A stretch of 64,000 nucleotides of DNA from a bacterium (GCA_021788365.1 JAJYKS010000001.1:70113-134112); one strand, 5' to 3'; positions 7,308 to 61,693 are shown, counted from the stretch's first letter. Program-made: numbers and translations. The notes: a model not told the origin generated them from the letters alone.

Positions 7308-7359
7308 ACCCAGGCCTGACGCACCCCATGCGCCAATTCTACCGTTAAACCACACCCCG
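7286..7359 (-). tRNA. tRNA-Pro (anticodon GGG)
   Basis: Reverse complement is CGGGGUG-UG-GUUU..GAAU-U-GGCGC-AUGGGGU-GCGUC-AGGC-CUGGG-UUCAAUU-CCCAG-CACCCCG-A-CCA. The acceptor stem is a perfect 7 bp, the T arm is canonical, U33 and G37 are present, and CCA is encoded. D stem is weak (G.U, U-A, U-A, U.G). Coordinates may be off by 1. Confidence 0.75.
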
Positions 7360-13566: not shown

Positions 13567-13621
13567 ACTTTTTACTATACCATGTCTGGCCCAGCCCCCG
13601 ACTGACGGGTATACTATACAC

Positions 13622-26048: not shown

Positions 26049-26076
26049 ATTGTATCTTATTTGAACAGGTATTCAA
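26049..26076 (-). promoter_or_regulatory. candidate sigma70-type promoter of the serS T-box leader
   Basis: Minus strand TTGAAT-N16-TACAAT immediately upstream of the leader. Confidence 0.4.
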
Positions 26077-31965: not shown

Positions 31966-32040
31966 GGCCTCATCGTCTAGCCCGGTCTAGGACAGCGGGT
32001 TCTCATCCCGCTAACTTGGGTTCGAATCCCAATGAGGTCA
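31966..32040 (+). tRNA. tRNA-Glu (anticodon CUC)
   Basis: GGCCUCA-UC-GUCU-AGCCCGGUCUA-GGAC-A-GCGGG-UUCUCAU-CCCGC-UAAC-UUGGG-UUCGAAU-CCCAA-UGAGGUC-A; near-identical architecture to E. coli tRNA-Glu; no encoded CCA. Confidence 0.85.
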
Positions 32041-33703
32041 CAAGTAGCGACTGATCACGATTGAACTGCTCATTTAGGGCGATATATTCGGCTAAATTGG
32101 GTGTTCCAGAAATCAGATCGCTGTATGCTGGTGCAGTGTTAAAAAGTAGGCCAAAGTATATGGCTCGATTGATTGGATTTGAGCCTTCTAACAGCAATTT
32201 ATCGAGGTGTTCCAGAAAATATTTGATGGTTGCTGCGACTTCTTCTATATTGATATCTTTTTCGGGATCTTGAGCCTTTTTAAGGCTTAAGTCCTCGATT
32301 TGTTTTTCGATCTTGAGGAGATCCTCTTCCATAAACCGGATAGCGGTTTCTGAAGAAAGCATCTTGATTTTGTCGGCAATAAGCCTGGCCGACGTTTGCA
32401 GCTCTAGGATTTTTTGGTCAATATGAAGTTTATCTTTGTTTATCTCAGCCTGCCTTCTATTCCATTCCTTGACAACCTCCTCTTTGAACCGCTCGGCATA
32501 TTTAGGGGTTACATGGAGGCGTTTAACGAAGTTTAAGATCGTTAAATCAAATTCTTTTTTGGATACTCTGAAATAATGACCCCGTTTATTACAGTGATAG
32601 GCTGGGTAGTATTTTCCCATTTTACCGCGTGAGGCGCTGCCAAATAGAGGTTTTTTGCACTCGGGGCACATAACATAACGTTTATAGGGAAAATCGGGAT
32701 TTCGCACACCCTTTTTGACCAAATATCGGGGAGGAATATTGCGATAGATCTTGACGCTATCGTCTTCTTCAACAATCGTTACTTTCCCGCGGTTGGCCCG
32801 GTTAAACATATCGATAGTGACAATCCCGTCGTATTTGCCCTTTACTGGTTGTCCTTGTGTCCATTTCTCGACGTTTATGCCGGCGTATATCGGTCTTTGC
32901 AAATAGCGCCAAAGCTGCTTAATATGAAGTTTCTTACCGCCAAGTTTGCCGATTACCTGCTTTTTATCCTCATGAGATCGAATAAGGCGCGTTCGTGATC
33001 GAAAGGCAAGTTTATTCACCTCATCGACTATTTGCTCGTCGGTGAGTGTCCCTTGGATACGCAATTCAAACATTTTTAGTATCCAGTAGGACTCTTCTGG
33101 ATGCGGCTTGAGGATTATCCGTTTTCCGTGAGGAGTCTCAACCTTCTCATTAACATAACCAAAAGGCGCCTGACGTGCCCGATACCCAAGCCTGACGTAG
33201 CGGATTTCGGCGCCGATCATCCGACTCATGATATCGCGCATTTCGTCTTTTGCCCGTTCTGCTTCAAGAATTTCTGCTTTTTTGGTAGGGCTATAAACGC
33301 TCCAATTGTATTTGACACCGAGGTGTTCAAGCGTATTTACTTCTTGAGAGCCAATAATTCCGTAGATATCGACGAGTCTGACGCCGTAATTCGTCAGCTG
33401 CATTTTCAAAAAGTCATAGAAATAGGAGCCTCCGCGAGTGAAACGGTCAATCGATTTGATAATAAAAACATCGATGTGATTCTTGGGATTTTTGCAGTAG
33501 TCGATGGCCTCCTGGATCGGCTGCTGTTCTTTTGAGGCAGATTCCATAAATACAAAATATTTTTTGATCTGAAGGTTGTGTGTCTCAGCGAACCGATCAA
33601 TTTGCTCCTGTTGAGCTTGCGGAGAATCTCCTTGTAAACCCTGTTTGACTGATGAAACGCGGATTGCAGCGACTGCATTTTCCCGCTTTATTTCCATTTC
33701 CAT
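32003..33703 (-). CDS. large serine recombinase
   Basis: AIRVSSVKQ catalytic Ser motif, recombinase domain, zinc ribbon CPECKKP...YHCNKRGH and coiled coil; the last 38 nt are antisense to tRNA-Glu. Confidence 0.85.
   Translation of the reverse strand: MEMEIKRENAVAAIRVSSVKQGLQGDSPQAQQEQIDRFAETHNLQIKKYFVFMESASKEQQPIQEAIDYCKNPKNHIDVFIIKSIDRFTRGGSYFYDFLKMQLTNYGVRLVDIYGIIGSQEVNTLEHLGVKYNWSVYSPTKKAEILEAERAKDEMRDIMSRMIGAEIRYVRLGYRARQAPFGYVNEKVETPHGKRIILKPHPEESYWILKMFELRIQGTLTDEQIVDEVNKLAFRSRTRLIRSHEDKKQVIGKLGGKKLHIKQLWRYLQRPIYAGINVEKWTQGQPVKGKYDGIVTIDMFNRANRGKVTIVEEDDSVKIYRNIPPRYLVKKGVRNPDFPYKRYVMCPECKKPLFGSASRGKMGKYYPAYHCNKRGHYFRVSKKEFDLTILNFVKRLHVTPKYAERFKEEVVKEWNRRQAEINKDKLHIDQKILELQTSARLIADKIKMLSSETAIRFMEEDLLKIEKQIEDLSLKKAQDPEKDINIEEVAATIKYFLEHLDKLLLEGSNPINRAIYFGLLFNTAPAYSDLISGTPNLAEYIALNEQFNRDQSLLVTSLGFEPKLAG
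32026..32041. repeat. attL-side direct repeat (within tRNA-Glu 3' end and the integrase 3' end)
   Basis: Exact 16-mer atcccaatgaggtcac shared with 49887-49902. Confidence 0.6.
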
Positions 33704-35033: not shown

Positions 35034-37907
35034 GTGAGCACAGCCACGATTACACCCATACCGACTGCCACTTTATCCTCAACTGATCTTGAGCAGCTGC
35101 AGCTACTTCATCAAATCCAGAACCACGTTATGTCTGTAAATCATGCATTCCTGCTTACGGTAGCACTTGGACTACCACTTCCGATTAGCTGGCGATTGGC
35201 GTTTTACCACTTTTTAATCTCATTACCATTTCCCGCGCTTTCTCCTGTAGGTTTTACTCTCCTTGTTGTTCTTGGGCCGATTGTTACCATTCTTTTCCTT
35301 GTTCTTATTGTGAAGGTCATCGTTTGGTTTATTCGAACAGTAATTCCTTTTGCTGCCTCCAAAACAATGAAAACAACTCGTACGAATACCTATTTGGAAT
35401 TAACCTTTCCTGCCGATACCAGTAAATCCGCGTATGCTACCGAACAGTTGTATACACTAATTCACACCCTGGCCAAAAGAATATCATCTGCCGATTCGTT
35501 TCTGGGAAGAAAGAAACAGTTTTCGCTTGAGATTGTTTCAACCAAAAAAGAGGGAATCCGTTATTTGATGGTGGCGCCTGAGAAAGATGCCGAGATTTTA
35601 AAACGAAGTCTGTTATCGTATTTACCCGGTATAAAAATCAGTAAAGTTGACGATTACCTCACCGAGAAAAGAAGTGCCAGTGATGTAAGTAAAACAATTG
35701 TTGATCTGAAATTATCCAGTCATTTTGCCTTGCCTTTGACCAAACAGAAATCGTTATCTGAAAACGATCCTATTTCATATCTCACCGGTCAAATGGCGTC
35801 TTTAGAGGTTGGGAGCTTGGTTGCCTTTCAGTTAATTGCCACACCAGTACTAAATTCTTTCCATCAAAGCCAGGTCAAAGAAATGTACACGCTCCGACAA
35901 AAGATGTATGGGTCAGAAGCGTTAACTCCGGTATTACAAAAAGGACTTTTTGACCAACTCGCCACTATTCCGGTACTTTCCATTTTTGTTTTAGCGATTG
36001 AGGTTGTGTGGAAGATAGTTTCATTCGCTTTTATGTTTGTCTTTAGTATGTTTTTGGGATTTATCGATCCTCAAAGTAAATCCATACCGTTTTTAATGAC
36101 AACACAGGCTCTAGATAAGGCAATTCCCAGGGAGATATTAAACCCGTACGAGCAGGAGCTAAAAACGGTCGTCAAAGAGAAAATCGATCAACAGTTATTT
36201 GAATGCTCAATACGGATTCTGATTATGGGAAAGGACCAAGCTGATATTGAGAGTCGGTTAGAGGGGATTATGTCGTCGTTTGGCATGATGAGTAGCGCGT
36301 ATCAGTCGATCGTTGCTAAAAGCTCATTTATTGCACATTCTTTTGCCAGACGGTTTGCTGATTTTTCCCAAAGAAGGTTGTCTACAAATACCGGTTTTAA
36401 TCAAAATCCCATTCTTTCTGCCTCAGAACTATCCGATATTTACCATTTCCCATATACCGATACGACCAAAACAGAAGATTTGGTAAAAGTTCATAGCCGG
36501 GATTTACCGGCGCCCTTATCCCTGAAACAGGGAAAAAGATTGGACGTCGTTTTCGGTCGGAATAGCTACGGCAGCCAGACAACCGATATTGGCCTTACCG
36601 ATGATGACCGTTCCCGCCACGTCTACATTCTTGGCCAAACTGGTTCGGGTAAGACAACTATTATTTTCCATATGGCCAAAGGAGACATTCAAAAAGGCCG
36701 AGGCTTGGCTGTTATTGATCCTCATGGTGATTTAGCAGAGGATTTGCTGGCTACTATTCCTCCTGATAGGAAAAACGATCTTGTTTATCTTAATCCCTAT
36801 GATCTGAAATACCCGATCGGAATTAACCTTTTGGAACTGACGCCCAACCAAGACGAGGGTATGATGGAACTCGAAAAAGAACTAGTTTGTGAAGGCGTTA
36901 TTTCAATCTTTCGCCGCGTGTTTTCAAAAGATGAAAATGTCGACGCTCACCGGATCGAGTATATTTTGCGAAATACGATCTATACGGCCTTTACGGTTCC
37001 AAGCGCAACGCTTTTTACGATCTATGATCTATTAAATAACCCGCAATATCAAAAAAGCATAGTGAATAAACTCCATGACGAAAATCTGAAGAATTTTTGG
37101 AAATCAGAGTTTGGTCGGGCTGGCAACTATCAGATAGTGAAAATGGTATCCGGCGTGACAGCAAAAGTCGGAAGGTTCTTGTTTTCTCCTATTGCCAAAA
37201 GAATTCTGGAGCAGCCCAAATCGACCATTAACTTCGATAAGATTTTGGATGAGCAAAAAATTCTTATCTGTAACCTGTCCGAAGGAAAAATCTCGGAGGA
37301 CACAATGCAGCTACTGGGAATGACGATCGTTACTAAAATTCATCAGGCGGCCCTGCGACGGGCAAGAGTGAGTGCCAAACAAAGAACACCGTTTTATCTC
37401 TTTATCGACGAATTCCAGAATTTTGCTACCGCTTCATTTACCAGACTGCTATCCGGTGGACGAAAATTCGGCTTGAGACTAACTGTCGCTGAACAATCAA
37501 CCTCCCAACAGGAAGATAGGAATGTTGTGAATGTTATTCTAGCTAACGTCGGAACCGTTATTTGTTTTCGAACGGCAAGCCCGATTGATGAAAACCTCAT
37601 GCTTGCCCAGTTTTCTCCCTACGTTAAACCAGGAGAAATTGTCAATCTGCCACGATACAAGTTCTTTATGAAAATGTCAGCCATTGAGCCGGAGGAACCG
37701 TTCTCAGGAACCACACTCTCTATTGAGGAAAAGCGCAACCAGGACAAAATTAACGGCCTAATTGAATCCTCAAGGCGTAACTGGGCAAAAAAATACGTGC
37801 CGAAAGAACCAGTTGTCGTTCCAGTGGATAATAATCAACAAAAGATTGTTAAACAGGACAGCACACCTTCTAAAAGAGGTGGATTACCAGGTTCGAAAAG
37901 GAGATAA
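35034..37907 (+). CDS. type IV coupling protein-like P-loop ATPase (VirD4/TraD/TrwB-HerA superfamily) with N-terminal TM anchor
   Basis: N-terminal TM helices; Walker A HVYILGQTGSGKTT followed by VIDPHGDL (cf. TrwB VIVDPNGD / HerA VIDPHGEY); Walker B/DEFQNF region; basic C-terminal tail. Confidence 0.6.
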   Translation: MSTATITPIPTATLSSTDLEQLQLLHQIQNHVMSVNHAFLLTVALGLPLPISWRLAFYHFLISLPFPALSPVGFTLLVVLGPIVTILFLVLIVKVIVWFIRTVIPFAASKTMKTTRTNTYLELTFPADTSKSAYATEQLYTLIHTLAKRISSADSFLGRKKQFSLEIVSTKKEGIRYLMVAPEKDAEILKRSLLSYLPGIKISKVDDYLTEKRSASDVSKTIVDLKLSSHFALPLTKQKSLSENDPISYLTGQMASLEVGSLVAFQLIATPVLNSFHQSQVKEMYTLRQKMYGSEALTPVLQKGLFDQLATIPVLSIFVLAIEVVWKIVSFAFMFVFSMFLGFIDPQSKSIPFLMTTQALDKAIPREILNPYEQELKTVVKEKIDQQLFECSIRILIMGKDQADIESRLEGIMSSFGMMSSAYQSIVAKSSFIAHSFARRFADFSQRRLSTNTGFNQNPILSASELSDIYHFPYTDTTKTEDLVKVHSRDLPAPLSLKQGKRLDVVFGRNSYGSQTTDIGLTDDDRSRHVYILGQTGSGKTTIIFHMAKGDIQKGRGLAVIDPHGDLAEDLLATIPPDRKNDLVYLNPYDLKYPIGINLLELTPNQDEGMMELEKELVCEGVISIFRRVFSKDENVDAHRIEYILRNTIYTAFTVPSATLFTIYDLLNNPQYQKSIVNKLHDENLKNFWKSEFGRAGNYQIVKMVSGVTAKVGRFLFSPIAKRILEQPKSTINFDKILDEQKILICNLSEGKISEDTMQLLGMTIVTKIHQAALRRARVSAKQRTPFYLFIDEFQNFATASFTRLLSGGRKFGLRLTVAEQSTSQQEDRNVVNVILANVGTVICFRTASPIDENLMLAQFSPYVKPGEIVNLPRYKFFMKMSAIEPEEPFSGTTLSIEEKRNQDKINGLIESSRRNWAKKYVPKEPVVVPVDNNQQKIVKQDSTPSKRGGLPGSKRR

Positions 37908-38016: not shown

Positions 38017-38790
38017 ATGTCTATTACTAATTGCTCAAAATCAGAACAACGAATTATTTCCTTTCTTTACTCATTCCGTTATTTACAAATTAAACAGATA
38101 CAAAAGTTATTTGATCATAAATCACCCAATCGAATTAAAATCTGGCTTAAACATTTACTGACAAATCATTTTATTTATGCCATTACAAACAAAAAAGACA
38201 GAACGAAACCGTATATTTATTGTTTGGATCAAAAAGCAAGCAAAATAGTAAGTGAGGTGATAAAAAAGGAAGATTTGGATAAAAGTTTTACCAATCGGAT
38301 ATACAAGGAAAAATCGTACAGCAGGAAGTTTATCAACAGAAACCTTTTTATCGTTGACTGTTATTTATATTTCTTAAAACATAAAGAAAAAGATTCAACG
38401 ATAAACTTTTTTACGAGACAAGATCTGTATGGCTATTCCTATTTCCCAAAACCCTTGCCAGACAGCTATATCGATGAGGAGGTAAAAACCGGACATAACA
38501 GATATTTCCTTGAGGTTTTTAGCTATAACGTTCCTATCAAATATCACTTTCAAAGAATTGAATACTATTTTGATTACTTTGATGATGGGCAGTGGAAAGA
38601 AAATACCAATGGCGCACCATTCCCGTCGCTTCTGATCGTGTGTGCCAATAACCAGTTAAAAAGAAAAATTTTCTTTCATGCAAAATCACTATTGGAACGA
38701 TCGTATGATGAAATTAGTGTCTTTCTAGCCACGGCCGACAAGATTACTCGGAATGATGAGAATGTTTGGGATGAAGTTAGAGTTGACTGA
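38017..38790 (+). CDS. replication-relaxation family protein (candidate relaxase)
   Basis: N-terminal wHTH QRIISFLYSFRYLQIKQIQKLF typical of Replic_Relax proteins of mobilizable elements. Confidence 0.55.
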   Translation: MSITNCSKSEQRIISFLYSFRYLQIKQIQKLFDHKSPNRIKIWLKHLLTNHFIYAITNKKDRTKPYIYCLDQKASKIVSEVIKKEDLDKSFTNRIYKEKSYSRKFINRNLFIVDCYLYFLKHKEKDSTINFFTRQDLYGYSYFPKPLPDSYIDEEVKTGHNRYFLEVFSYNVPIKYHFQRIEYYFDYFDDGQWKENTNGAPFPSLLIVCANNQLKRKIFFHAKSLLERSYDEISVFLATADKITRNDENVWDEVRVD

Positions 38791-38835: not shown

Positions 38836-39228
38836 TTACAGATAAACAGCTTCTCCCACCTTAAATGCCAGCAGCGCGACGTCTTCTTTAATGTTATTCA
38901 CGCCTTTATTCCCCATGTACACTATGGCGTGAGTAGTACCGGTAATTATTTGTAGGGTCCCGTTAGCTACACTGTGAGTTGCATTACCGAAACGATTAAA
39001 GCCCTCTTCAAAACCACCCACGGCGGAGCTCAATCTACTTGCTAAGGCTACGTGTGTTTTTTCAACTCCGGTTGCCACAGCTTCCTGTAAGTTACCAAAA
39101 GCAAGGGCCGTAGTTTTCTTTACATCGCCAGTTACGTTGGTAGCTGCCTCAGAAATATCGGAAGCAGTCTTGCCGATAACTTTGAGGGCAGTCTTGGCAA
39201 CGCCCGGTGCAACATCTGTCAATGCCAA
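38836..39228 (-). CDS. hypothetical protein (weak; lies in a higher-GC patch between the two relaxase copies)
   Basis: 130-aa Ala/Gly/Thr-rich ORF; composition differs from the surrounding AT-rich DNA. Confidence 0.25.
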   Translation of the reverse strand: MALTDVAPGVAKTALKVIGKTASDISEAATNVTGDVKKTTALAFGNLQEAVATGVEKTHVALASRLSSAVGGFEEGFNRFGNATHSVANGTLQIITGTTHAIVYMGNKGVNNIKEDVALLAFKVGEAVYL

Positions 39229-39262: not shown

Positions 39263-39625
39263 ATGAGATATATGATTCGCCCCGAACCATCCTGTTACTT
39301 GTCTATTGAAGACACTAATAAAGTGATTAAGCGACATTTTTTAGACATTTTTGACTATTTTGTGCCTGATGACTTATATAAACGGATTGATAAGTATATG
39401 TATTATTTTGAGAAACGCTTTTGGCAAGAGAATACGGATAAGCAATTCCCAGAAATTATCCCTGTTTGTCCGAATAAAGCTGCCAAAACCTTCCTTGAGA
39501 AAACAATTGCCAGAAGACTAAAAGAAAAAGAATTACTCATAGGTTTTTATTTATCCAGCTGGGAAGAGATTAGGCAGTATGGAATGTGTAGGCAAGCGTT
39601 ACATAAAGTTGAAATGGAAAATTAA
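39263..39625 (+). pseudogene. truncated second copy of the replication-relaxation gene (C-terminal half only)
   Basis: FLDIFDYFVPDDLYKRIDKYMYYFEKRFWQENTDKQFPEIIPVCPNKAAK aligns with YFLEVFSYNVPIKYHFQRIEYYFDYFDDGQWKENTNGAPFPSLLIVCANNQLK of the full-length copy. Confidence 0.5.
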
Positions 39626-39694
39626 ACAAATTAATTTTGCTAGTAGTACAATTCGCTGATTTGAAAATCGTTTGTAAGCAAAAGGACTATAAAC

Positions 39695-40099
39695 TTAAAA
39701 AGTTTTAGAAAGCGGAGTGAGTTCGGCAGTTTGCGTTGCCTCATTGCTCAACACCGCGCCCTTGTACGGCAAAATAGCTTGTATCATTTTGTCGGTATTG
39801 GTTTTGCTTGCGTCGTATACAACTTCGCCTCTGCCATCAACTGTTCCGTTCACAACTTCTTTGCCGACAAAACCAACGGTCGCATTCACAACACCAGGTG
39901 TATCCTTGAGGGCATTTTCTACATTGTAAGGGCAGGATGCGCAGTCCATTCCATCAATCTTTAGCGCAACGTGGCGCAAGTTATTCGTATTTGCCGCTTG
40001 CGTAGTGTTTGCTGGGTTGGCGTTGTGCGTTGCCAAACGAAAGCCGATAACACCGATCAAAACGAGAGGGACTGCGATTAAAACAAGTTTCTTGTTCAT
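39695..40099 (-). CDS. merP: MerP-like periplasmic heavy-metal-binding protein (HMA domain)
   Basis: Signal/TM helix then GMDCASC metal-binding motif in a ferredoxin-like HMA fold; last gene of the mer operon. Confidence 0.65.
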   Translation of the reverse strand: MNKKLVLIAVPLVLIGVIGFRLATHNANPANTTQAANTNNLRHVALKIDGMDCASCPYNVENALKDTPGVVNATVGFVGKEVVNGTVDGRGEVVYDASKTNTDKMIQAILPYKGAVLSNEATQTAELTPLSKTF

Positions 40100-40101
40100 A
40101 G

Positions 40102-40473
40102 TTAGTAAAGGTATTTATAAACGAGCGGCGCGAGAATAGGCACGAGCACGAATGTGAACAAAAGATACAGTGCAATCATCACACAGAGAGCAATCACAAC
40201 CTGCACCGCTATTTTCTTATTGTCGAGCTTGCCCGATCCGTCTCCGCAATTGCAAACGGCCTTTTGTTTCTTTCTGAAATAGAACCAACCGGCGATAACA
40301 AAAAACAGAAGCGCGCCGACAAGGAAGTAAGGTTTGTTATAGCCGATTGAGAGGATGCTTCCCGCAGTACCTACTCCAAGCGCAATCAGAATAAGAGGGC
40401 CGAGGCAGCAGAGCGAAGCGAGGAATGCTCCTATAATCCCGATTTTGAGAAATGTTTTGTCGTCGTTGTTCAT
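40102..40473 (-). CDS. merT: mercuric ion transport protein MerT
   Basis: First TM helix LASLCCLGPLILIALG (MerT Cys-Cys pair), second cytoplasmic pair CNCGDGSG, 3 TM, ~120 aa. Confidence 0.8.
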   Translation of the reverse strand: MNNDDKTFLKIGIIGAFLASLCCLGPLILIALGVGTAGSILSIGYNKPYFLVGALLFFVIAGWFYFRKKQKAVCNCGDGSGKLDNKKIAVQVVIALCVMIALYLLFTFVLVPILAPLVYKYLY

Positions 40474-41873
40474 ATGCAGCAGCTTAATTTTGAAATGTCT
40501 TTGGTAAAAGACAGTGCTACGATTTTTATTGCTTCGGAAAGCGTCGGGAACATCGGCAGAGAATTCACTACATCGTCAATGGTATTTTTGTTTTTCACCA
40601 ATATCATAGCTTCGGCGATAAGCTCTCCGGCATTCGGCGCGAGAATATGCACGCCGAGAATTTGTTTTGTCTGGGGGTGAATCGCCATTTTGATAAGCCC
40701 CTCGGTTCGTCGCATGATGATTGCCTTTGGCACATCCTCAAACGAAACCGTGCGGCAGGCGCAAACGCCCATTTGCTTCATTTGCTCGTCCTCGGTAAAA
40801 CCGACACCGGCAAGCTGGGGATCGGTAAAAATGGTATAGGGCACAGCGTTGTAATCAACAGAAAGTGTTGTGCCCTTGAGCGCGTTTTCTGCCGCAAGCG
40901 TTCCCTCGCGTCCGGCAGTTGGTTCAAGCCGCAAGGGCCCGCTTGTAACATCGCCGACCGCAAAAATATTTTTGGTGGAAGTTTGAAAATACTGATTGAC
41001 GACAATCGCTTGCCCTTTGTTTACTTCAACACCGACAACATCAAGACCGAGTCCTTGCGTGTTGGGCGTTTTGCCTACCGCCAAAAGTATTTCATCAGCG
41101 GATATTTCCTCTTGCACCCCTCCGATTTGATACGAGACAACTTTTTTATCGCCCTCTTTGCGCGCGCTTTTTACCTCAACATTTGTTTCGACTGTTATCC
41201 CTTCCTTTGAGAGTATCTCGGCGAGGCGATCAGTAAGTATTTTTTCAGAGTGCGGAAAAATTGAATCGCCGCGCTGCAAAATGGTTACTTTCGTGCCAAA
41301 GCGGGAAAACATTTGAGCAAATTCCAAGCCAAGCGGCCCCGAGCCGATAACGATTAACTCCTTTGGCTGCTTTTCCATTTTCAACGCTTTGATATGCGTA
41401 ACAAATCCAGTTTCTCGGATGCCTTCAATCGGCGGCACATTGGCGGTAGAGCCGGTGGCAATAACAAATTTTTCTGCACTTAACTTTTCGCCGTTCACTT
41501 CGATCTTGTTTTGAGAGATAAATTTTGCCTTCCCCTCGATTGCCGTTACATACTCTAAATTTTTCAGCACCTTTTCGTATTTCTCTTGGCGCAACTTTTC
41601 CACAAGCGAGAGTTCGTCTTGCACGACTTTTTGAAAATCAAAATTTTTTACTTCAAGCTCAACGCCGGCAACGCGGTGATGTTTGGCGTGGTGTAAAATT
41701 TCACCGGCGTACAAAAGCGTTTTTGACGGTACACAGCCAACATTGACGCAGGTGCCGCCGAGCGGGAGTCCGGCGTTCGCAAGGGCAGTTTTTGCCTTGA
41801 GTTCATTAGCCCGGATTGCCGCCGCAAACGCGCCTGCTCCGCCACCGATAACGATAAGGTCAAATGTTTTCAT
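40470..41873 (-). CDS. merA: mercuric reductase MerA (core enzyme, no NmerA domain)
   Basis: FAD-binding GGGAGAFAAA, redox-active GGTCVNVGCVPSK, C-terminal Cys pair ...KLSCCI, pyridine nucleotide-disulfide oxidoreductase dimerization domain. Confidence 0.9.
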   Translation of the reverse strand: MKTFDLIVIGGGAGAFAAAIRANELKAKTALANAGLPLGGTCVNVGCVPSKTLLYAGEILHHAKHHRVAGVELEVKNFDFQKVVQDELSLVEKLRQEKYEKVLKNLEYVTAIEGKAKFISQNKIEVNGEKLSAEKFVIATGSTANVPPIEGIRETGFVTHIKALKMEKQPKELIVIGSGPLGLEFAQMFSRFGTKVTILQRGDSIFPHSEKILTDRLAEILSKEGITVETNVEVKSARKEGDKKVVSYQIGGVQEEISADEILLAVGKTPNTQGLGLDVVGVEVNKGQAIVVNQYFQTSTKNIFAVGDVTSGPLRLEPTAGREGTLAAENALKGTTLSVDYNAVPYTIFTDPQLAGVGFTEDEQMKQMGVCACRTVSFEDVPKAIIMRRTEGLIKMAIHPQTKQILGVHILAPNAGELIAEAMILVKNKNTIDDVVNSLPMFPTLSEAIKIVALSFTKDISKLSCCI

Positions 41874-42177
41874 AATAGTTGATTCTTTCTTTCATCACCC
41901 CGACAATAGGTGATTTTTTGAGTTTATAATAAACAGTGCGAAATTCGCGGCGGCTCTCCACCATATCCGCCTTGTGGAGTTTGTGGAGCGTGTGAGAAAC
42001 GGCAGAGACCGAAACACCGACAACTTCGGCAATGTCTCCCACAGAAAGCTCTTTGTGACGGCATAGGAGATAACAGATTTTCAGCCGCGTGGGATCGCCG
42101 ACCATGTTAAATTCTCGCGCGCAAGCGAGAATCGCGTCTTTATTCTTGAGTTCTTTTTTGAGTTTATCCTTTTTCAT
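41860..42177 (-). CDS. ArsR/SmtB-family metalloregulatory repressor
   Basis: ACAREFNMVGDPTRLKICYLL...LSVGDIAEVVGVSVSAVSHTLHKL. Start set at the internal Met (MKKDKL). The stop overlaps the merA start. Confidence 0.75.
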   Translation of the reverse strand: MKKDKLKKELKNKDAILACAREFNMVGDPTRLKICYLLCRHKELSVGDIAEVVGVSVSAVSHTLHKLHKADMVESRREFRTVYYKLKKSPIVGVMKERINYYENI

Positions 42178-42195
42178 ACTTGAATCTATATTCAA
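42178..42195 (-). promoter_or_regulatory. candidate ArsR operator (inverted repeat TTGAAT-N4-ATTCAA) abutting the arsR start
   Basis: Plus strand cTTGAATctatATTCAAa directly upstream of the arsR ATG. Confidence 0.25.
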
Positions 42196-42347
42196 ATGAT
42201 AGCAGACGGAAAGAAAAAGGACAACAAGTATTTTGTGCACAGGGAGTTCCTTAACCTTTTCCGCGCAGGAAGAGTGGGTAGGAAAAGAAAAAGGACTATA
42301 AAAAAACCGCAAGCGTAAGAGATTAGTCTCCCGCCTGCGGCCAAGAG

Positions 42348-42653
42348 CTACTCCTTCATTATTTCCGATAACCGACATGGGGTAAAATACCAGTCTCGCT
42401 CGACTGGTAGCCCTAATTTGCCTTTATTATTCTGCAGTTCGGATAGACTAAAGTATCCAAGCTCTTTTTCGAACCCGTCCACCAATCCATAGAACAAGTC
42501 ATTGCCGTCAAATTCAATAGCGTACCATGTCCAGGAAAAATTCGGATAGAAAAACTTAGCAATCACCACCGGATCCTTGACTTCCTCCTGTGAGTAAAGT
42601 GGCGGTAATTTACCACGCAATTCTTTGGTTAACAATTCCATAATTTTCACCAC
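42348..42653 (-). CDS. DUF2958-family protein (common on conjugative plasmids and ICEs)
   Basis: FSWTWYAIEFDGNDLFYGLVDGFEKELGYFSLSEL matches the DUF2958 core. Confidence 0.55.
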   Translation of the reverse strand: MVKIMELLTKELRGKLPPLYSQEEVKDPVVIAKFFYPNFSWTWYAIEFDGNDLFYGLVDGFEKELGYFSLSELQNNKGKLGLPVERDWYFTPCRLSEIMKE

Positions 42654-42947: not shown

Positions 42948-43328
42948 ATGAGACCAAAAGCGTTGAGTAATCTCGAACTAGAAATTATGAAGGTGGTTTG
43001 GGAGTGTCAGCGATGTTCAGTACGTGATGTATTAAGGCAGGTAGGCAACAGCCGTAAACTAGCTTATACGACTGTGGCTACCATTCTTCAGCGACTGCAT
43101 AAAAAAGGACTCGTTGAGAGAAAAAGTGACAAACTTGCATATATTTATTCCCCAATGCTATCCAAAAAATCATACGGTAAACAACTGACAGAGTTATTTA
43201 TCAAAAGATTTGTCAGGTCCTTTGGTGATGTGGCGATTGCCTCGTTTGCAGAAGGGATAGAAAGTCTGCCTCTGCAAAAAAGAAACAATTTACTGACACA
43301 ACTTCAGAACTATGATAAATCAAAATAA
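42948..43328 (+). CDS. BlaI/MecI/CopY-family transcriptional repressor
   Basis: LSNLELEIMKVVWECQRCSVRDVLRQV...YTTVATILQRLHKKGLVERK is a penicillinase-repressor-type winged helix. Confidence 0.8.
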   Translation: MRPKALSNLELEIMKVVWECQRCSVRDVLRQVGNSRKLAYTTVATILQRLHKKGLVERKSDKLAYIYSPMLSKKSYGKQLTELFIKRFVRSFGDVAIASFAEGIESLPLQKRNNLLTQLQNYDKSK

Positions 43329-44307
43329 ATATCTCCTCTTATTTTTGGGTCTGCTTTTTCTCCTTGGCATTGGTGTGGTGATTGACCTCGGCAAAGTGCT
43401 TCATTTGACTTTTCAGCATACTGCCTATTATTGTCAGGCATTCATAAAGTCATTCTCGCTAAGAATTCCTCACAGCTTAGGAACATTCCTTCTTTTTTTT
43501 ATCGGAGCCAGCGTCATGGCGGCAGCAGTGAAATTATTGAGCGCGTATATTCAGATTCATACAATGAAAAGATCACTTCGTCGGAACGTTATTGTTAATG
43601 AAAGTTTTCAGTTGATTTTGAAAGGGCTTAACCTAACCCATCAGGCACTACTAATAAAAGACAATAAACCATTTGCGTTTTGTTTTGGCCTACGGCGTCC
43701 GAAAATTTATCTTTCTACTAAGATGTACAACCTATTGGAGCAAAAGGAATTAGAAGCGGTACTCTTGCATGAAAGCTACCATTTACAAAAGAGCGATACC
43801 TTAACCCTGTTTGTGGCATCTTTTGTACAATTTCTCTTTCCTTTTTTTCCTGTAGTTTCAGATCTTGTCCGAAACTACAGAATAGAGCGAGAATTAAATG
43901 CCGACAAGGAAGCTCTTAAATCTATTAGCGATCCTGATATCCTTTTAAATACTTTTAAAAAGCTTTTCGTATATACAAATACTAATCCGGCATTTGTTTC
44001 AGCGATTATAGATAGCGAAACAATAGAATCTCGTATAAAGGCCCTTACAGCGCAAAACTTTTTGTGGCGGAAGTTTAGTACGAAAAATATGTTTATTTCT
44101 CTCCTTTCGTTTTCAATCTTCTATTTACTGGCGCTTGCACCCGTCTTTGCGATAAAACAAAATAATAAAAATAGTGAAGTAATGATATGCACAGTAAGCA
44201 ATGATTGTTCTCGTTGGTGTAGAGAGCATAGTACTGTTACTCCAAACATACCTTCTAGATCTCCAAATACATCATATCCCTATACCCCCGTCGTTCACTC
44301 CATATAG
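43312..44307 (+). CDS. BlaR1/MecR1-type M56 membrane metalloprotease without a beta-lactam sensor domain
   Basis: KPFAFCFGLRRPKIYLSTKMYNLLEQKELEAVLLHESYHLQKSD (HExxH) matches M56; 4+ TM; Cys-rich C-terminal tail (CTVSNDCSRWCREHS). Confidence 0.8.
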   Translation: MINQNKYLLLFLGLLFLLGIGVVIDLGKVLHLTFQHTAYYCQAFIKSFSLRIPHSLGTFLLFFIGASVMAAAVKLLSAYIQIHTMKRSLRRNVIVNESFQLILKGLNLTHQALLIKDNKPFAFCFGLRRPKIYLSTKMYNLLEQKELEAVLLHESYHLQKSDTLTLFVASFVQFLFPFFPVVSDLVRNYRIERELNADKEALKSISDPDILLNTFKKLFVYTNTNPAFVSAIIDSETIESRIKALTAQNFLWRKFSTKNMFISLLSFSIFYLLALAPVFAIKQNNKNSEVMICTVSNDCSRWCREHSTVTPNIPSRSPNTSYPYTPVVHSI

Positions 44308-44314
44308 TTTCGTC

Positions 44315-44354
44315 TTGACAACTATTTAATTATCTACTACATTTAGTAGTAGAT
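44315..44354 (+). promoter_or_regulatory. candidate promoter (TTGACA-N17-TACATT) overlapping palindrome ATCTACTAC-attta-GTAGTAGAT
   Basis: 9-bp perfect inverted repeat seen in sequence; shares a CTACA-N3-xGTAG core with the site at 42932. Confidence 0.4.
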
Positions 44355-44374
44355 CGGTTGATAAATTCCCTGAA

Positions 44375-45115
44375 ATGATTACTATGGCAGAAGAGATGAA
44401 TAAAAGAATAAATATTAAAGTAATACTAGTTGGTCTTTTAGTCATTGCCGCCTTTCTTATCGGCTCACTTTGGACCAAAGTACAAATGTTAGAGAAAGGG
44501 ACAACTGTAGCTAGTGCTACTGCTACCGTCCCAAACCAACCCAATCAACCACAAGCTCCTGCACCCGGACAAAAAGTAAATGTCTCTGTGGGACACTTGC
44601 CTCCTAAAGGAAATCCAAATGCCAAAGTAAAAATTGTCGCATTTGAAGATTTCCGTTGTCCGTTCTGCGACAGATTTTTTAAAGATGCCGAAGCGCAAAT
44701 TATTAAAGATTACGTAGATACAGGTAAAGCGGTTATTTACTACAGAAATTATCAGTTCTTAGGTCCGGCGTCAGTTGTTGCCGGCAATACCGGCGAATGC
44801 GCCAATGAACAGGGTAAATTCTGGGAGATGCATGATTACCTCTATCAAAATCAACCAGATGAATCAGATACATCAATGTATACCGTTGATAAACTTACAT
44901 CTATCGCTTCAAATCTTGGTTTAAGTGGTGACAAATTCAAGTCATGCTTAGAAAGTAAAAAATATGATAAGAATGTAGCTGATGATTTAAGCGCCGGACA
45001 ACAAGCAGGTGTACAAGGGACACCCACAGTCTTTATCAATGGCATATCAATTGTTGGGGCACAACCGTACAGTACATTTAAAACAATAATTGATCAGCAA
45101 CTAGCAAAATTATGA
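44375..45115 (+). CDS. DsbA-family thiol:disulfide oxidoreductase (membrane-anchored)
   Basis: N-terminal anchor; thioredoxin fold with CPFC active site (KIVAFEDFRCPFCDRF); DsbA-like helical insert. Confidence 0.7.
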   Translation: MITMAEEMNKRINIKVILVGLLVIAAFLIGSLWTKVQMLEKGTTVASATATVPNQPNQPQAPAPGQKVNVSVGHLPPKGNPNAKVKIVAFEDFRCPFCDRFFKDAEAQIIKDYVDTGKAVIYYRNYQFLGPASVVAGNTGECANEQGKFWEMHDYLYQNQPDESDTSMYTVDKLTSIASNLGLSGDKFKSCLESKKYDKNVADDLSAGQQAGVQGTPTVFINGISIVGAQPYSTFKTIIDQQLAKL

Positions 45116-45684
45116 AGAAGATATTTAGCAAAAAGTTTCTTATAAAAACTTTACTCATTGCCGCAGTGTATCTTATCACAATCAATTATTTGATGAATAT
45201 CTCATTAGTAAAAAATACTATTCTTGGTAGTTATCCACTAGGTTATAAATTTAGACTACTTGGTGACCTTTTAGAAGGTATGTGGACCGTAATGACGCAC
45301 GTAACCTTATTTGTTCTTATACTAAATTCTTTACTTACCGGTGCTATTTTAACCCTTCTTGAACAAAAAATTAGGATATTACGAGAAATGGGCCCCTTAC
45401 ATATCCTGGCAGGAGGAAGTACATTCCTTTCGATTGTAGGAAGTGGTTGTGCTGCCTGTGGGCTACCCATCCTTTCACTTCTGGGACTCAGTGGGGCTGT
45501 GCTTTATCTCCCTTTTAAAGGCGGAGAGCTTCTTTACATATCGTTTGTACTTCTTCTTAGCTCCTTCTACTTTATAGCCAAAGATTATGTTTCAATTCAA
45601 TGTTCCTGGGAGCAGAAGAAGAATAGTTCTTTTACGAAACCTGTTTTAAAGACTTTTGTAGGTCATATTGACGCTAGAAACTAA
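45112..45684 (+). CDS. membrane protein with intramembrane CxxC module (paralog of the TM part of 46431-48095)
   Basis: LSIVGSGCAACGLPILSLLGLSGAVLYLPFKGGEL aligns with IGAFAASCPVCSGLLLSLIGISGGLSVFPFKGLEL of the downstream gene. Confidence 0.5.
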   Translation: MKKIFSKKFLIKTLLIAAVYLITINYLMNISLVKNTILGSYPLGYKFRLLGDLLEGMWTVMTHVTLFVLILNSLLTGAILTLLEQKIRILREMGPLHILAGGSTFLSIVGSGCAACGLPILSLLGLSGAVLYLPFKGGELLYISFVLLLSSFYFIAKDYVSIQCSWEQKKNSSFTKPVLKTFVGHIDARN

Positions 45685-45686
45685 AT

Positions 45687-46418
45687 ATGCGGAAATTGTT
45701 TGCGATCATAAAAGAAAATAAATTACCTGCAATCATACTCGTAGTAGCCGTATTGATGATCGGATTTTTTGTGGCTAACACTTTTCATACGAATAGTACC
45801 AATAGTCAACCGACTACTAGTCAAAACACAAATTCTCTTTATCAGGAACTCTTAAGTATCTACAATAACATTCCCACTCAATCTGGAAAAACTAATTTTC
45901 TCAAACAAAGCAATAACCTCACCCAAAAAGTTGATCCGGAACTCGTAGATTTAGATAGTCAAATCATTACCTGTAGTGCGAATGTGGATAGTCTTCTTTC
46001 CAGTCAGCCAAGCACCGGTGGTAGTTGCGTTGGGGGAAACACCCCCTTAAGTAGCATAAAGGGGAAATATTTAAGCGGTCAATGCTGCGGAACCCTCATG
46101 GATACCAAAGAAAGGCATGAGAATCTTGAAAAATTACAAGCCTATAAAGGTATGCCAGATATTCCGCTTGATCCCATGCATACACCTATTGAGATGGCAA
46201 AAGGATGGATCGACTATGATAACTCGACCCAACTTACATCTGAAGAACAGAAAGTTTACGATCAGGCATACGCCATATCAAAAGAAAAACCCTGTTGCTG
46301 CAAATGCTGGCACTATTTTGTCAACGAAGGCATTGCCAAAAAAATGATAAAAGACGGTACATTTAATTCAAAACAGATCGCTGACTATTGGGATGCCTCA
46401 GATATTTGCGGAGTATGA
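45687..46418 (+). CDS. membrane-anchored cysteine-rich extracytoplasmic protein (PCC...C.H domain)
   Basis: N-terminal TM anchor; GQCCGTL and LTSEEQKVYDQAYAISKEKPCCCKCWHYF align with LTTEQEEHIRTLAENIYRPCCNNSTFFQDCNHG of 46431-48095. Confidence 0.5.
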   Translation: MRKLFAIIKENKLPAIILVVAVLMIGFFVANTFHTNSTNSQPTTSQNTNSLYQELLSIYNNIPTQSGKTNFLKQSNNLTQKVDPELVDLDSQIITCSANVDSLLSSQPSTGGSCVGGNTPLSSIKGKYLSGQCCGTLMDTKERHENLEKLQAYKGMPDIPLDPMHTPIEMAKGWIDYDNSTQLTSEEQKVYDQAYAISKEKPCCCKCWHYFVNEGIAKKMIKDGTFNSKQIADYWDASDICGV

Positions 46419-46430
46419 AAATAAAGAGCT

Positions 46431-48095
46431 ATGGAAAAATCAATAAGAAGAGAAAAAGAGTATCAGTGCCCAATTTGTAAATTGCATTATAAAGAAAGGG
46501 TTTGGGCAACCAAATGTAAAGCATGGTGTAGCAAACATGAAAGCTGCAATTTAGCTATTACTCGCCATTCACTTGAAGCAAAAAATGATAATATCGAAAA
46601 AACAGCTATTCAACAAAGAGACACTCTTTCCCATACAGAAACAAGAGACTCAAAACACGAGAAACAATCAAGTCAAAGATTACTGACCTTTCTTTTTTAT
46701 CTCTTAATTGGTATAACCGCCTCGATTGGGCTTTTTCTCCTCTATGATTTCTTTCTTACCAGAACCTCAAGTATCACCACGCTTATTCTTAATACTGTAA
46801 ACGATCCTTTTTACCTGTGGTTTTATAGTCTCTCCACGTTTGTAGCAATCATTCTTTTTGGTATTGATGTCGCAGTTTCCATCTATCTATTCAGGAGCTT
46901 ACACGTAGCTCATTTAAAGGAACAGGGCGGCAATACGGTGGGGGTTATTATTGGAGCCTTTGCCGCTTCTTGTCCTGTCTGCTCAGGACTTCTTCTCTCT
47001 CTTATCGGCATTTCAGGAGGACTGAGTGTTTTTCCATTTAAAGGACTTGAGTTAAAGACACTTTCGGTACTCTTTCTCGCTGTGCCACTTTTCTTCCTTT
47101 TGAGGAGATTAAAAAGTCATAACTGTGAAGATACCTGTTCACATCTAGAAAACGCCGCGTTTCAAACAAAAGATCGTGTACTCTTTGGTTCACTTTTTGT
47201 CTTTTTGCTTGCCGAAATACTTCTTGGTTACTCTTTTCTTCGTGCAGAGCCTATTCTAGCGGATTTATTTTATCCCATCCCGAAAGCCACTACTTCAGCT
47301 ACTGCTCCTAATGCGCAGCTATCGCAGCAAGTACAACAAGAAGTATTACCCACCAGTGGGTTTCAAACTCCAATAGTTTTGGGTAAGGTGATTCCAGAAA
47401 TGGTAGCAAACGGTATTATTGATGTCCAAAAACTCCAAGATTTGTATAAGGAGCGGGGTGGTATCCCCCAAGAGGAGATGGATCTTTTGACAAAGCAGTC
47501 AGACAAACCGTTAGTAATTACAAGCAAAAACCAGTTCTGGCTTGTCACTTTTCTCTGGCCTTTAGGATTAGCAAATAAAATGATTATTAATAACCAGAGC
47601 CCTCTCGCCGGTAAAGATTTATTTAATTTTGCCTCAACCGGGGGTTGGAATTTGGGTCAAGCGAAAAATGGAGGCAGTTACTTTAACCAATATTCAATTA
47701 TTCCCCTGACTACGGAACAAGAAGAGCATATAAGAACTCTTGCCGAGAATATATACAGACCATGTTGTAACAACTCAACCTTTTTCCAGGATTGTAACCA
47801 CGGTTCAGCCGCGCTTGCTCTCATTGAACTTGGTGTAGCCCAAGGTTTATCAGATCAGGAAATCTATAAAACAGTCCTTCATTTTAACTCTTTCTGGTTC
47901 CCACAAAATTACACGGAGATGGGCTTATACTTCAAAGCCGTAAAACATACTGATTGGAATGATGTTGATCCAGAGCTAGCTCTGTCGAAAGACTATTCAA
48001 GCATTAGTGGCTGGTCTCAAAATGTCGATGCCCCAATTCGCCAAATTCCAGGACTTTTGCCAGCCCAAAATGGTGGTGGGAGCTGTGGTACATAG
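46431..48095 (+). CDS. fusion protein: N-terminal zinc ribbon, CxxC membrane module, C-terminal PCC cysteine-rich domain
   Basis: YQCPICKLHY...CKAWCSKHESC; TM region with ASCPVCSG...PFKGLEL; C-terminal domain with PCCNNS..CNHG; ends GGGSCGT. Confidence 0.5.
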   Translation: MEKSIRREKEYQCPICKLHYKERVWATKCKAWCSKHESCNLAITRHSLEAKNDNIEKTAIQQRDTLSHTETRDSKHEKQSSQRLLTFLFYLLIGITASIGLFLLYDFFLTRTSSITTLILNTVNDPFYLWFYSLSTFVAIILFGIDVAVSIYLFRSLHVAHLKEQGGNTVGVIIGAFAASCPVCSGLLLSLIGISGGLSVFPFKGLELKTLSVLFLAVPLFFLLRRLKSHNCEDTCSHLENAAFQTKDRVLFGSLFVFLLAEILLGYSFLRAEPILADLFYPIPKATTSATAPNAQLSQQVQQEVLPTSGFQTPIVLGKVIPEMVANGIIDVQKLQDLYKERGGIPQEEMDLLTKQSDKPLVITSKNQFWLVTFLWPLGLANKMIINNQSPLAGKDLFNFASTGGWNLGQAKNGGSYFNQYSIIPLTTEQEEHIRTLAENIYRPCCNNSTFFQDCNHGSAALALIELGVAQGLSDQEIYKTVLHFNSFWFPQNYTEMGLYFKAVKHTDWNDVDPELALSKDYSSISGWSQNVDAPIRQIPGLLPAQNGGGSCGT

Positions 48096-49886: not shown

Positions 49887-49902
49887 ATCCCAATGAGGTC
49901 AC
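49887..49902. repeat. attR-side direct repeat (copy of the tRNA-Glu 3' end)
   Basis: Exact 16-mer atcccaatgaggtcac with further degenerate T-arm-like similarity upstream (gcccgtcgaacc). Confidence 0.6.
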
Positions 49903-60625: not shown

Positions 60626-61693
60626 CTAGAGGACCTCCATGGTGCCGGTGTACATGCCCATGCTGCACGAAAATGTGTATAACCCGGCTTGCGTGGGCGT
60701 AAATGTGTGTACCTTGAATGTTCCGGGACTAATGTAGTCGGCAATACCAAAAGACCTAAACGTAAAACTGGCTGCGCAGCTATAGACGCCTGTCGCGGTC
60801 GTGAGGGTGAGCTCCACGGGTACCCCGCGGGCAACCCGTACATAGCTCGGTGAGTAACCGGTATTTTCTATGGCTATTTTCACCTTTTGTACCCCATCCA
60901 CTACCGCTACTGTTGGCTCTGCCAACTGAGCTGCTTTGCCCATATTGTAGGGAGGAAGTAGTGCGACTAATTTTGGTCCCAACCTGTCGAGCGCGAGGGG
61001 AGCGTCTAGCGCAGTTGCAACACCATTTAATCCTACCAATCCCATAATGACGAGTACCGCCGCGGCAGCTCGCAGGAAGTGGCGTCGCCATACTTCTGAG
61101 AACTTTGCTGTTGCTATACCAATCACAAAGAACATGGGAGCGGTGCCTGCAACAAATGCCCCCATAGTTAGAGCACCAACGACGGGTGATCCTGAGTTAA
61201 TTGCCAGTACTTCCATGGCTTGCGTGACACCACATGGGATAAAAATCGTGAGGAGTCCGAGGAGCGCCGGCGTAAACAGTGCGCGGCGAGAGGTCGTGTT
61301 CTTTATAAGCTTATATGCGAAGCGAGGTGGGCGCATGGATAGATAGCGGAAGATAGGGTGGATCTCCAGTAAGTTACCGGCGGTGGCAATCATAAAGAGT
61401 GAAACGACTGCTTGGAATATCAGTCGTGGCGTAGTTGAGAGCACCAGTACGCCACCCAACACACCGAGGAGTGCGCCAAGCGCCATGTGTATGAGTAATT
61501 TTGCTGTGAGAAAGGCGGTAACCGGTCCCCAGTCGTCTACACCGAAGCTACCCGGGGCGATTGCTTTCCCACCGCGTTCTACTTGCTCTAATTTTTGATT
61601 GGCAATGGCTGACGCGAGAAATCCACCTTGTAGTGCGGCGCAGCTTACTCCTCCCGAAGTCAATCCGGTAAGAAAGATGAAAAGATAGTTCAT
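60626..61693 (-). CDS. permease with intramembrane Cys (TauE/CcdA-like?) fused to a C-terminal cupredoxin-like domain
   Basis: TM core with [11 protein letters not shown] and [11 protein letters not shown]; C-terminal beta domain ...[18 protein letters not shown] is cupredoxin_1-like; start overlaps the copA stop by 4 nt. Confidence 0.5.

Follow-up and report, generated by a model that had tools for sequence, protein, structure and literature searches.

A predicted ArsR-regulated mercury resistance cassette inserted in an AT-rich integrative element of a Microgenomates-group bacterium

In mercury resistance of the Tn501/Tn21 merRTPAD type, the metal passes from MerP to MerT, then to the C-terminal cysteines of MerA and on to the active site, under the control of MerR as activator and repressor. 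In other lineages, an ArsR/SmtB-type protein takes the place of MerR; this arrangement is documented for Sulfolobus, Streptomyces and others, and has been noted besides in Bacteroidetes, Actinobacteria and some Firmicutes (PMC3466566). Work on MerA phylogeny has also described MerA lineages K12-K14 in the candidate phyla radiation (CPR), from Daviesbacteria, Peregrinibacteria, Giovannonibacteria and other CPR bacteria, and placed this CPR MerA group in a Group B, with the MerAs of Thermococci and Archaeoglobi as its sister (Christakis et al. 2021, PMC8261052). Here, we analyze a cluster of four genes, arsR, merA, merT and a gene for a MerP-like protein, which lies within an AT-rich element in a 64-kb stretch of a bacterial assembly (GCA_021788365.1 JAJYKS010000001.1:70113-134112; hereafter the window, whose coordinates are used throughout and collected in Table 1). 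All four genes are on the minus strand, in the order given.

Several features set this locus apart from each of its described counterparts. With CPR Group B it shares the protein family and the host radiation, a core MerA without NmerA and a Phe at position "605", and the relatives of the window MerA at 64-92% identity come from the same candidate phyla as K12-K14; however, that survey concerns MerA phylogeny only, and its searched text contains no CPR operon structure, ArsR regulator, operator, merT-merP pair or cassette mobility (PMC8261052). The mer system of Streptomyces lividans 1326 likewise combines an ArsR/SmtB-family repressor in place of MerR with MerT/MerP genes (PMC3466566, PMC11672702), but there the regulator belongs to a divergently transcribed operon and has more than six cysteines (PMC11672702), whereas the genes described here are co-directional (R-A-T-P) and the regulator has exactly three. 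In the merRHAI locus of Sulfolobus (Saccharolobus) solfataricus, an ArsR-type protein also represses in the absence of Hg and the core MerA has Phe605 (PMC3466566), yet that locus encodes a TRASH-domain protein, lacks MerT/MerP and uses archaeal promoters, in contrast to the MerT, MerP-like protein and bacterial sigma-70-type promoter of the window. Finally, Tn501/Tn21 has the MerR activator/repressor, a promoter with a 19-bp spacer, an NmerA domain and the order T-P-A, and is carried by a transposon of the Tn3 family that has 38-bp inverted repeats and encodes its transposase; the locus described here shows none of these features. The operon in the window also lacks merB, which is part of the S. 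lividans locus.

Our findings suggest, with a probability of about 0.8, that this cluster is an intact four-gene Hg(II) detoxification operon, narrow in spectrum, that would encode a working Hg(II) reductase system. The gene arrangement supports a single co-directional arsR-merA-merT-merP transcript, because the arsR stop and the merA start overlap by exactly 14 nucleotides (nt) (ATGAAAACATTTGA, 41873-41860), merA and merT overlap by 4 nt, and merT is separated from the MerP-like gene by a gap of 2 nt. An earlier note, made from this sequence alone, had put the first of these overlaps at about 14 nt. The open reading frame (ORF) listed for arsR by the ORF tool spans 41860-42378; we place the start of the gene at ATG 42177, since most of the more than 100 homologue clusters are called at 105 residues and since the conserved promoter falls inside the longer ORF.

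MerA scores 526.7 bits on the NCBIfam equivalog TIGR02053 (cut-off 454.45), its top solved relatives are all MerAs, and it can be aligned end to end with the solved enzymes of Lysinibacillus (5x1y), Metallosphaera (4ywo) and Tn501 (1zk7). The active-site motif GGTCVNVGCVPSK holds C42/C47, which are aligned to C122/C127 of 5x1y and represent the redox-active CxxxxC next to flavin adenine dinucleotide (FAD; C207/C212 in Bacillus RC607 numbering), and the C-terminus ...KLSCCI places C465/C466 in register with the terminal CC of 5x1y and 4ywo (C628/C629). Surveys of mer genes additionally look for Tyr264, together with Tyr605 in bacterial or Phe605 in archaeal MerA (PMC3466566, PMC8261052). In the window protein, Y99 is aligned to Y179 of 5x1y, the Tyr264 equivalent, and F442 is aligned to Y520 of 5x1y and to a Phe in M. 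sedula 4ywo, which makes it an archaeal-type "605" variant, as bacterial MerA has Tyr at this position and archaeal MerA Phe. There is no NmerA domain, and residue 3 aligns to residue 84 of an NmerA-bearing MerA. The active-site motif, the C-terminal cysteine pair and the missing NmerA domain, all pointed out in the earlier note, are therefore confirmed by formal alignment with solved MerAs. Based on its diagnostic residues and profile score, this 467-residue protein is predicted to reduce Hg(II).

The two remaining genes are more divergent. MerT passes the Pfam cut-off (PF02411, 40.9 against 32.9) and misses the stricter NCBIfam MerT equivalog (42.9 against 150), which identifies it as a divergent family member. 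Its hydrophobic segments lie at residues 13-31, 48-66 and 92-110, and its two cysteine pairs, both anticipated from the sequence, are LCCLGPL (C22/C23) in the first segment and VCNCG (C74/C76) in the loop after the second; from hydropathy, a topology with three transmembrane segments and the second pair in a cytoplasmic loop is likely. The fourth protein matches Pfam HMA (5.5e-09), carries the motif GMDCASC (C53/C56) and has an N-terminal hydrophobic segment at residues 5-23 by hydropathy, as would be expected of an exported HMA protein with a GMxCxxC motif whose gene adjoins merT. The motif had been read correctly, although the accompanying assignment to MerP was too specific: membership in the MerP equivalog TIGR02052 was rejected (39.7 bits against a cut-off of 92.55), and the protein is equally similar to the metal-binding domains of Cu-ATPases and to MerP 1afi. 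On both counts we call it "MerP-like", a name taken from its context. The combination of arsR with merT/merP is less common, given that a 2012 survey found arsR to be inversely correlated with merT and merP (PMC3466566), but it is not new, because Streptomyces has it.

Comparison with related loci has shown that the 2.6-kb cassette was acquired separately, between convergent Replic_Relax-type and DUF2958 genes. We retrieved 80 metagenome loci through the ATPase of the element and read the backbone order where enough sequence was available. None of these 80 related backbone loci contains arsR, merA, merT or merP, and in 33 of them Replic_Relax is followed by DUF2958 at a distance of no more than a few hundred nt, an interval that in the window holds an ORF at 38836-39228, a truncated Replic_Relax copy and the mer cassette. 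Nucleotide identity to the cassette of locus L086, which stands in an unrelated context, is 80.8% over 2.6 kb (window 42290..39698) with none beyond, and the similarity shared with arsR-merA in other CPR loci breaks off at about 42270-42292. A 10-nt direct repeat flanks the insert. When two mismatches are allowed, its consensus has three matches in the window, a number reached in 0 of 100 shuffles. In L123, a relative that carries no mer genes, the sequence is single and follows immediately on the Replic_Relax stop, where it reads GGACTACAAAAAAACCGCAAGCG. The mer-free backbones, the homology that stops at the junctions and the repeat that is single in L123 together place the insertion in the convergent spacer. 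The junctions are present in three independent assemblies, including GCA_027372535.1. Separate acquisition, which the earlier note had argued from GC content, is thus borne out by 80 mer-free backbones, the position of the junctions and the direct repeat. The insertion could have occurred either with a duplication of about 10 nt or by recombination at a shared core. A Tn21-like transposon was considered and rejected, as no transposase is present in or beside the insert in Pfam scans of the neighbouring ORFs tested, nor are there terminal inverted repeats.

Table 1. Features of the mer cassette and the surrounding element (window coordinates)
Feature	Position	Strand	Description
arsR	41860..42177	-	105 aa, ArsR/SmtB-family repressor, exactly three cysteines C19/C35/C39
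merA	40470..41873	-	467 aa, core mercuric reductase, key residues C42/C47, Y99, F442, C465/C466
merT	40102..40473	-	123 aa, membrane protein, three hydrophobic segments
MerP-like gene	39695..40099	-	134 aa, N-terminal hydrophobic anchor or signal and HMA domain
Inserted unit (promoter, arsR, merA, merT, merP)	39694..42292	-	2,599-bp cassette
Operon promoter	42196..42224	-	-35 TTGTCC (42224-42219), 17-nt spacer, TG-extended -10 TATCAT (42201-42196); from promoter scan
Operator palindrome TTGAAT-ATAG-ATTCAA	42180..42195		Directly adjoins the -10 hexamer; 2 nt separate it from the arsR ATG
Left direct repeat GGACTATAAA	39684..39693		10 nt; 18 nt with one mismatch = 39676-39693
Right direct repeat GGACTATAAA	42293..42302		18 nt with one mismatch = 42285-42302; backbone-native, T-tail after DUF2958
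attL, 16-nt ATCCCAATGAGGTCAC	32026..32041	+	3' end of tRNA-Glu(CTC) (31966-32041)
attR, exact second 16-nt copy	49887..49902	+	Closes the 17.9-kb element; GC step coincides
Serine recombinase	32003-33703		Beside tRNA-Glu(CTC), 3' end overlapping the tRNA
TrwB/TraG-like ATPase	35034-37907		Coupling-protein-like
Replic_Relax gene	38017-38790		
Second Replic_Relax-type gene, 5'-truncated	39272..39625	+	Backbone neighbour of the insert at its merP end; annotated publicly as 117 aa
DUF2958 gene	42348..42653	-	arsR side of the insertion; Pfam DUF2958 7.5e-15

The regulator belongs to the ArsR/SmtB family rather than to MerR, as the earlier note had stated in likening it to actinobacterial and archaeal mer operons: it matches Pfam HTH_5 (PF01022, 1.8e-13) and scores 74.4 bits on NCBIfam HTH_metalloreg (NF033788, cut-off 55). 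Among solved structures, SmtB comes nearest to it (E = 1e-14 over residues 18-101), and the protein shares the winged-helix fold and length of Synechococcus SmtB (1r22/1smt). However, both zinc sites of SmtB are missing: C61 is replaced by Ser45, the Asp/His/His/Glu ligands of alpha5 are absent, and the cysteines of helix 1 and helix 2 have no counterpart in SmtB. The known ArsR/SmtB metal sites (alpha3 CxC, alpha3N and alpha5) were each considered and rejected, as none is present. An AlphaFold model (mean predicted local distance difference test score 80) comprises five helices and a beta wing; helix 13-22 contains C19, and helix 29-40 contains C35 and C39, spaced by one turn. The model yields helix positions only, and we infer the geometry of the proposed cysteine site. 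These are the sole cysteines of the protein. They are invariant in 32 close homologues. Of 31 merA-adjacent relatives, whose identity reaches down to about 45%, 29 retain them, and the other two have the arsenic-type motif ELCVCD instead. Among 80 genome loci, arsR is found near merA in 57 and directly upstream in about 30, where the 14-nt overlap or one of 4 nt recurs. All relatives are metagenome-assembled, so that taxon labels of short contigs may be wrong, and the sets of related loci, retrieved through exact peptide patterns, are not exhaustive.

Taken with the linkage to merA, these conserved cysteines make Hg(II) the somewhat favoured candidate for the signal sensed through C19, C35 and C39. 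The three thiols, one in helix 1 and two in a CxxxC of helix 2, may form a tris-thiolate, which would add a new, minimal site for Hg(II) sensing to the ArsR/SmtB family, working through an operator fused to the -10 box. A 2024 review describes the HgS3 site of MerR, which binds Hg(II) with three thiols, as the only natural one known, and notes that ArsR-type Hg sensors have yet to be examined for their metal chemistry (PMC11672702).

The promoter region offers comparative evidence for how the operon could be controlled. An inverted repeat TTGAAT-N4-ATTCAA had been noticed at the arsR start; we find that it also abuts the -10 box and is conserved as an operator. It is the sole perfect copy in the window, and with one mismatch allowed shuffled sequences average 0.31 matches. 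When 47 arsR upstream regions were aligned by anchoring on the palindrome motif itself, 45 kept the same layout, consisting of a TTGaca-like hexamer, 17 nt, TAtcAT, TTGAATAnnnnTTCAA and an ATG within 0-8 nt or inside the right arm, and the other flanking bases had diverged; the two loci that fail the pattern bear the near variant TTGTAT...ATGCAA. Conservation of the layout between unconserved flanks argues that the palindrome is a functional operator, to which ArsR is predicted to bind. So compact an order of promoter, operator and ATG further suggests a transcript with little or no leader. As in other ArsR-type mer repressors, the gene is thus encoded with merA and has its operator at the mer promoter. 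Operators of SmtB and CzrA contain a TGAA-N6-TTCA core, and the window operator has the same core.

Two minor observations concern this region. A second operator-like site at 26061-26076 (TTGAACAGGTATTCAA, one mismatch) was rejected because it is not above chance and no ArsR-type gene adjoins it; it is preceded by TCTTAT and falls at the 3' end of a 100-residue ORF. Separately, seven loci (L015, L016, L029, L031, L063, L077 and L086) share the 9-mer TGTGGATAA a short way upstream of the -35 hexamer. This 9-mer is the DnaA-box consensus TTATCCACA in reverse complement, and its counterpart in the window is TGTGCACAA, at about 42232-42240.

If these predictions hold, the operon could work as follows, with the transfer and reduction steps modelled on the established mer pathway and repression on ArsR/SmtB biology. 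Without Hg, a dimer of the 105-residue repressor would bind the TTGAAT-N4-ATTCAA operator, which lies against the -10 box and over the transcription start, and would thereby block RNA polymerase. Binding of Hg(II) to C19 in helix 1 and C35/C39 in helix 2 would lower DNA affinity and release the repressor. Outside the cell, the membrane-anchored HMA protein would capture Hg(II) and hand it to C22/C23 in the first transmembrane segment of MerT, from where it would move to the cytoplasmic pair C74/C76, then to C465/C466 at the C-terminus of MerA and on to C42/C47 next to FAD. There, NAD(P)H would reduce Hg(II) to volatile Hg(0).

Base composition had been the original reason to regard the cassette as foreign, at about 50% GC in an AT-rich backbone. 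Calculation rules out a uniform GC: the cassette has 46.8%, the rest of the AT-rich element 38.9%, and the chromosomal flanks 48.8% and 49.4%. Its composition is distinct, as claimed, but somewhat lower than estimated, and the AT-rich part is an 18-kb island, not the genome. The same pattern is seen in GC at third codon positions, which is 0.48-0.55 in the four mer genes, 0.29-0.37 in the plus-strand neighbours from blaI to padR in the element and 0.47-0.63 in host genes. The GC of the cassette is nearer to that of the host chromosome than to that of the element.

Three other explanations of the locus were weighed. The regulator might respond to thiol redox state or persulfides, like BigR and SqrR, or to another soft metal (Cd, Cu, Ag or Au) rather than Hg, in which case general thiol stress would switch the operon on. 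Persulfide sensing does occur in ArsR/SmtB members that have cysteine pairs, the weaker solved relatives of the window protein include BigR, HlyU and related regulators, the spacing of C35 and C39 by one helical turn would permit a disulfide or polysulfide bridge, and arsR-merA in other CPR genomes stands beside genes for DsbA-like, BlaI/BlaR1-like and cysteine-rich membrane proteins. Nevertheless, linkage to merA is seen in most loci, often with an overlap of the two genes, the conserved thiols of the regulator number three, as in MerR (PMC11672702), and not two, and the only enzyme that the regulator controls is specific for Hg(II). We consider this alternative unlikely. A much smaller chance is left to the idea that "MerA" is another flavoprotein disulfide reductase, similar to lipoamide dehydrogenase or RclA, and that the cluster is not a mercury system. 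The protein does score well on glutathione reductase and lipoamide dehydrogenase models, the latter with 380.5 bits against a cut-off of 408.8, but so does the whole superfamily; it stays under the cut-off of every other flavoprotein disulfide reductase model tried and exceeds that of the MerA model only. The C-terminal vicinal cysteines and Tyr99 that define MerA are present, its nearest solved structures are those of MerAs, and MerT and an exported HMA protein are co-transcribed with it.

Least probable of the three is that the GC difference reflects coding constraints and that the mer genes are original to the AT-rich element. Across all relatives, the GC of merA does track that of its surroundings (r = 0.82), which implies that composition drifts toward the host, and the gap between cassette and element is only about 8 points. 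On the other hand, merA has 47.6% GC here, matching the 46.1 +/- 2.4% of its close clade (at least 80% identity), and the absence of mer genes from all 80 related backbones, the proximity of the flanking genes in 33 of them, the end of nucleotide homology at both junctions, the repeat that is single in a mer-free relative and the truncated backbone gene at the insertion junction all favour separate acquisition.

A number of points nevertheless weigh against the reading preferred here. The function of every member of the CPR mer clade is read from sequence, and the fourth protein, judged the same way, is a generic HMA domain. The regulator has no characterised ArsR/SmtB metal site: the alpha3 motif ELCVCD appears as ELSVGD and the alpha5 ligands of SmtB are missing, so that Hg sensing by this protein is argued from its linkage to merA and its conserved cysteines. 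A site scan found no terminator-like site downstream of merP, and no Shine-Dalgarno sequence is visible before arsR, which leads us to predict that its transcript is leaderless or nearly so. The 2,599-bp insert has neither terminal inverted repeats nor a recombinase of its own.

The same four-gene cassette recurs in unrelated contexts at loci L086, L085, L031 and L058. In L085 (1-19746), a 90%-identical cassette with an extra, weak MerC-like gene is carried by an element that encodes a serine recombinase, an S24-type repressor, two restriction-modification systems, ParB and a faint portal-protein match, and that may represent a CPR prophage carrying mercury resistance. The closest MerA (91%) belongs to L084, a Saccharibacteria metagenome-assembled genome (MAG) that has only arsR-merA; at L084:11404-11575, 100 nt left over from the 5' end of merT run directly into 78 nt from the 3' end of merP, which marks this two-gene form as an internal deletion derivative of the four-gene cassette. 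In most other CPR loci, merT and merP are absent.

Perfect inverted repeats surround the cassette in several loci, with 141 nt in L005 (1-141, 4525-4665), 99 nt in L031 (1-99, 3967-4065) and 31 nt in L086 (9555-9585, 12192-12222). The L005 and L031 lengths are minima, since the repeats are contig-terminal and equal in length to the assembler k-mer. These bracketing repeats form a GC-rich, hairpin-rich family (GGGCGCGGCGGAATTCCCCCC...TTCCGCCGCGCCC...) and could be cassette ends, a palindromic target or insulating terminators. As a border of the cassette described here, the family, known from L005, L031, L086 and L084, was rejected, as a search of the window did not find it. The operon may be a recombinase-less cassette that spreads across CPR classes, with a 10-nt duplication here and between long inverted repeats elsewhere.

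Sequence relatives identify the host as a Microgenomates-group bacterium. The best named relatives of its lysyl-tRNA synthetase are Microgenomates-group bacteria at 74-75% identity, and lower-ranking matches drop to about 60-65%, one of them named Patescibacteria group bacterium. MerA, in contrast, has more than 100 clusters at 81-92% identity in many CPR classes, including Saccharibacteria, Giovannonibacteria, Magasanikbacteria, Vogelbacteria, Harrisonbacteria, Nealsonbacteria, Berkelbacteria and others, along with a few MAGs labelled as other phyla; with its Phe at "605" and no NmerA, it is a member of the published CPR MerA group (PMC8261052). Such identity across classes, compared with about 75% for the host synthetase within its own group, indicates a wide and comparatively recent spread of the mer genes. 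The homology search suggested in the earlier note for finding a donor lineage thus leads to a pool of other CPR/Patescibacteria genomes and not to actinobacteria or archaea. No close relatives were found in cultured plasmids or phages (at most 38% identity for ArsR and 40% for MerA), and a pattern scan of IMG/VR found no viral copy of the cassette.

The element that received the cassette is integrative and probably mobilisable, with its attachment site at the 3' end of tRNA-Glu: it has tRNA 3'-end repeats at both borders, a recombinase at one of them, and transfer-related genes. In the related loci, the backbone follows the order serine recombinase, ATPase, Replic_Relax and convergent DUF2958; it is found at 40-70% identity on 80 metagenome contigs, which suggests that this element family is widespread among CPR bacteria. 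The truncated Replic_Relax copy resembles full-length orthologues of L117, L121, L123, L156, L160, L161 and L165 (37-64% identity) and represents the type that accompanies the most similar DUF2958 genes. It is abutted by a 130-residue ORF with no assigned family (38836-39228, minus strand, 47% GC), and this junction looks like a recombination scar between two element variants or a further insertion.

Another operon of the element may be related to mercury transport. On the plus strand, 42948-48095 encodes a BlaI-like repressor, a BlaR1/M56 peptidase, a DsbA-like thioredoxin and three cysteine-rich proteins of 190, 243 and 554 residues; the ORFs at 45112-48095 match no Pfam or NCBIfam family, save for a weak MerT match in one relative. 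Relatives of these proteins occur in L004, L005, L007, L009, L020, L029, L043, L062, L067, L073, L068, L069 and L080. Those of the 190-residue protein lie directly beside merA in about 30 of the 80 CPR loci, often overlapping the merA stop, and have four hydrophobic segments with CxxC in the third and ARKxxxxCxxC after the fourth, a MerT-like layout; those of the 243- and 554-residue proteins lie inside arsR...merA operons in L055, L056 and L059. The 190-residue family is probably the usual CPR mercury transporter, and this four-transmembrane, MerT-like family may replace classical MerT/MerP in other CPR genomes, with a paralogue 3 kb away in the window, at 45112-45684. That all of this holds jointly, with a new Hg(II) site in the regulator, a recombinase-less cassette and an undescribed MerT-like family in place of MerT/MerP elsewhere, is a tentative proposal to which we give slightly less than even odds.

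For mercury biology, these results introduce no new principle, as ArsR-regulated mer operons and the CPR MerA clade have already been published and the function of the operon is ordinary; the evidence for mobility and the candidate Hg-sensing site are of modest interest. The locus does provide a clean, junction-level case of a resistance cassette captured by an integrative element in CPR bacteria, where gene exchange is poorly documented. In addition, the very small three-cysteine regulator is a tractable model for ArsR-type Hg sensing, and the conserved fusion of promoter and operator could be used directly as a biosensor part.

Outside the element, the host has metal-handling genes of its own on the chromosome, one for a P1B ATPase of the CopA type whose N-terminus holds an HMA domain and one for an Nramp transporter (61690-63864 and 12187-13647). 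A second serine recombinase gene at 5757-7359 (XisF-like, 516 residues), for which no second att repeat was found inside the window, ends inside tRNA-Pro(GGG), an arrangement like that at tRNA-Glu.

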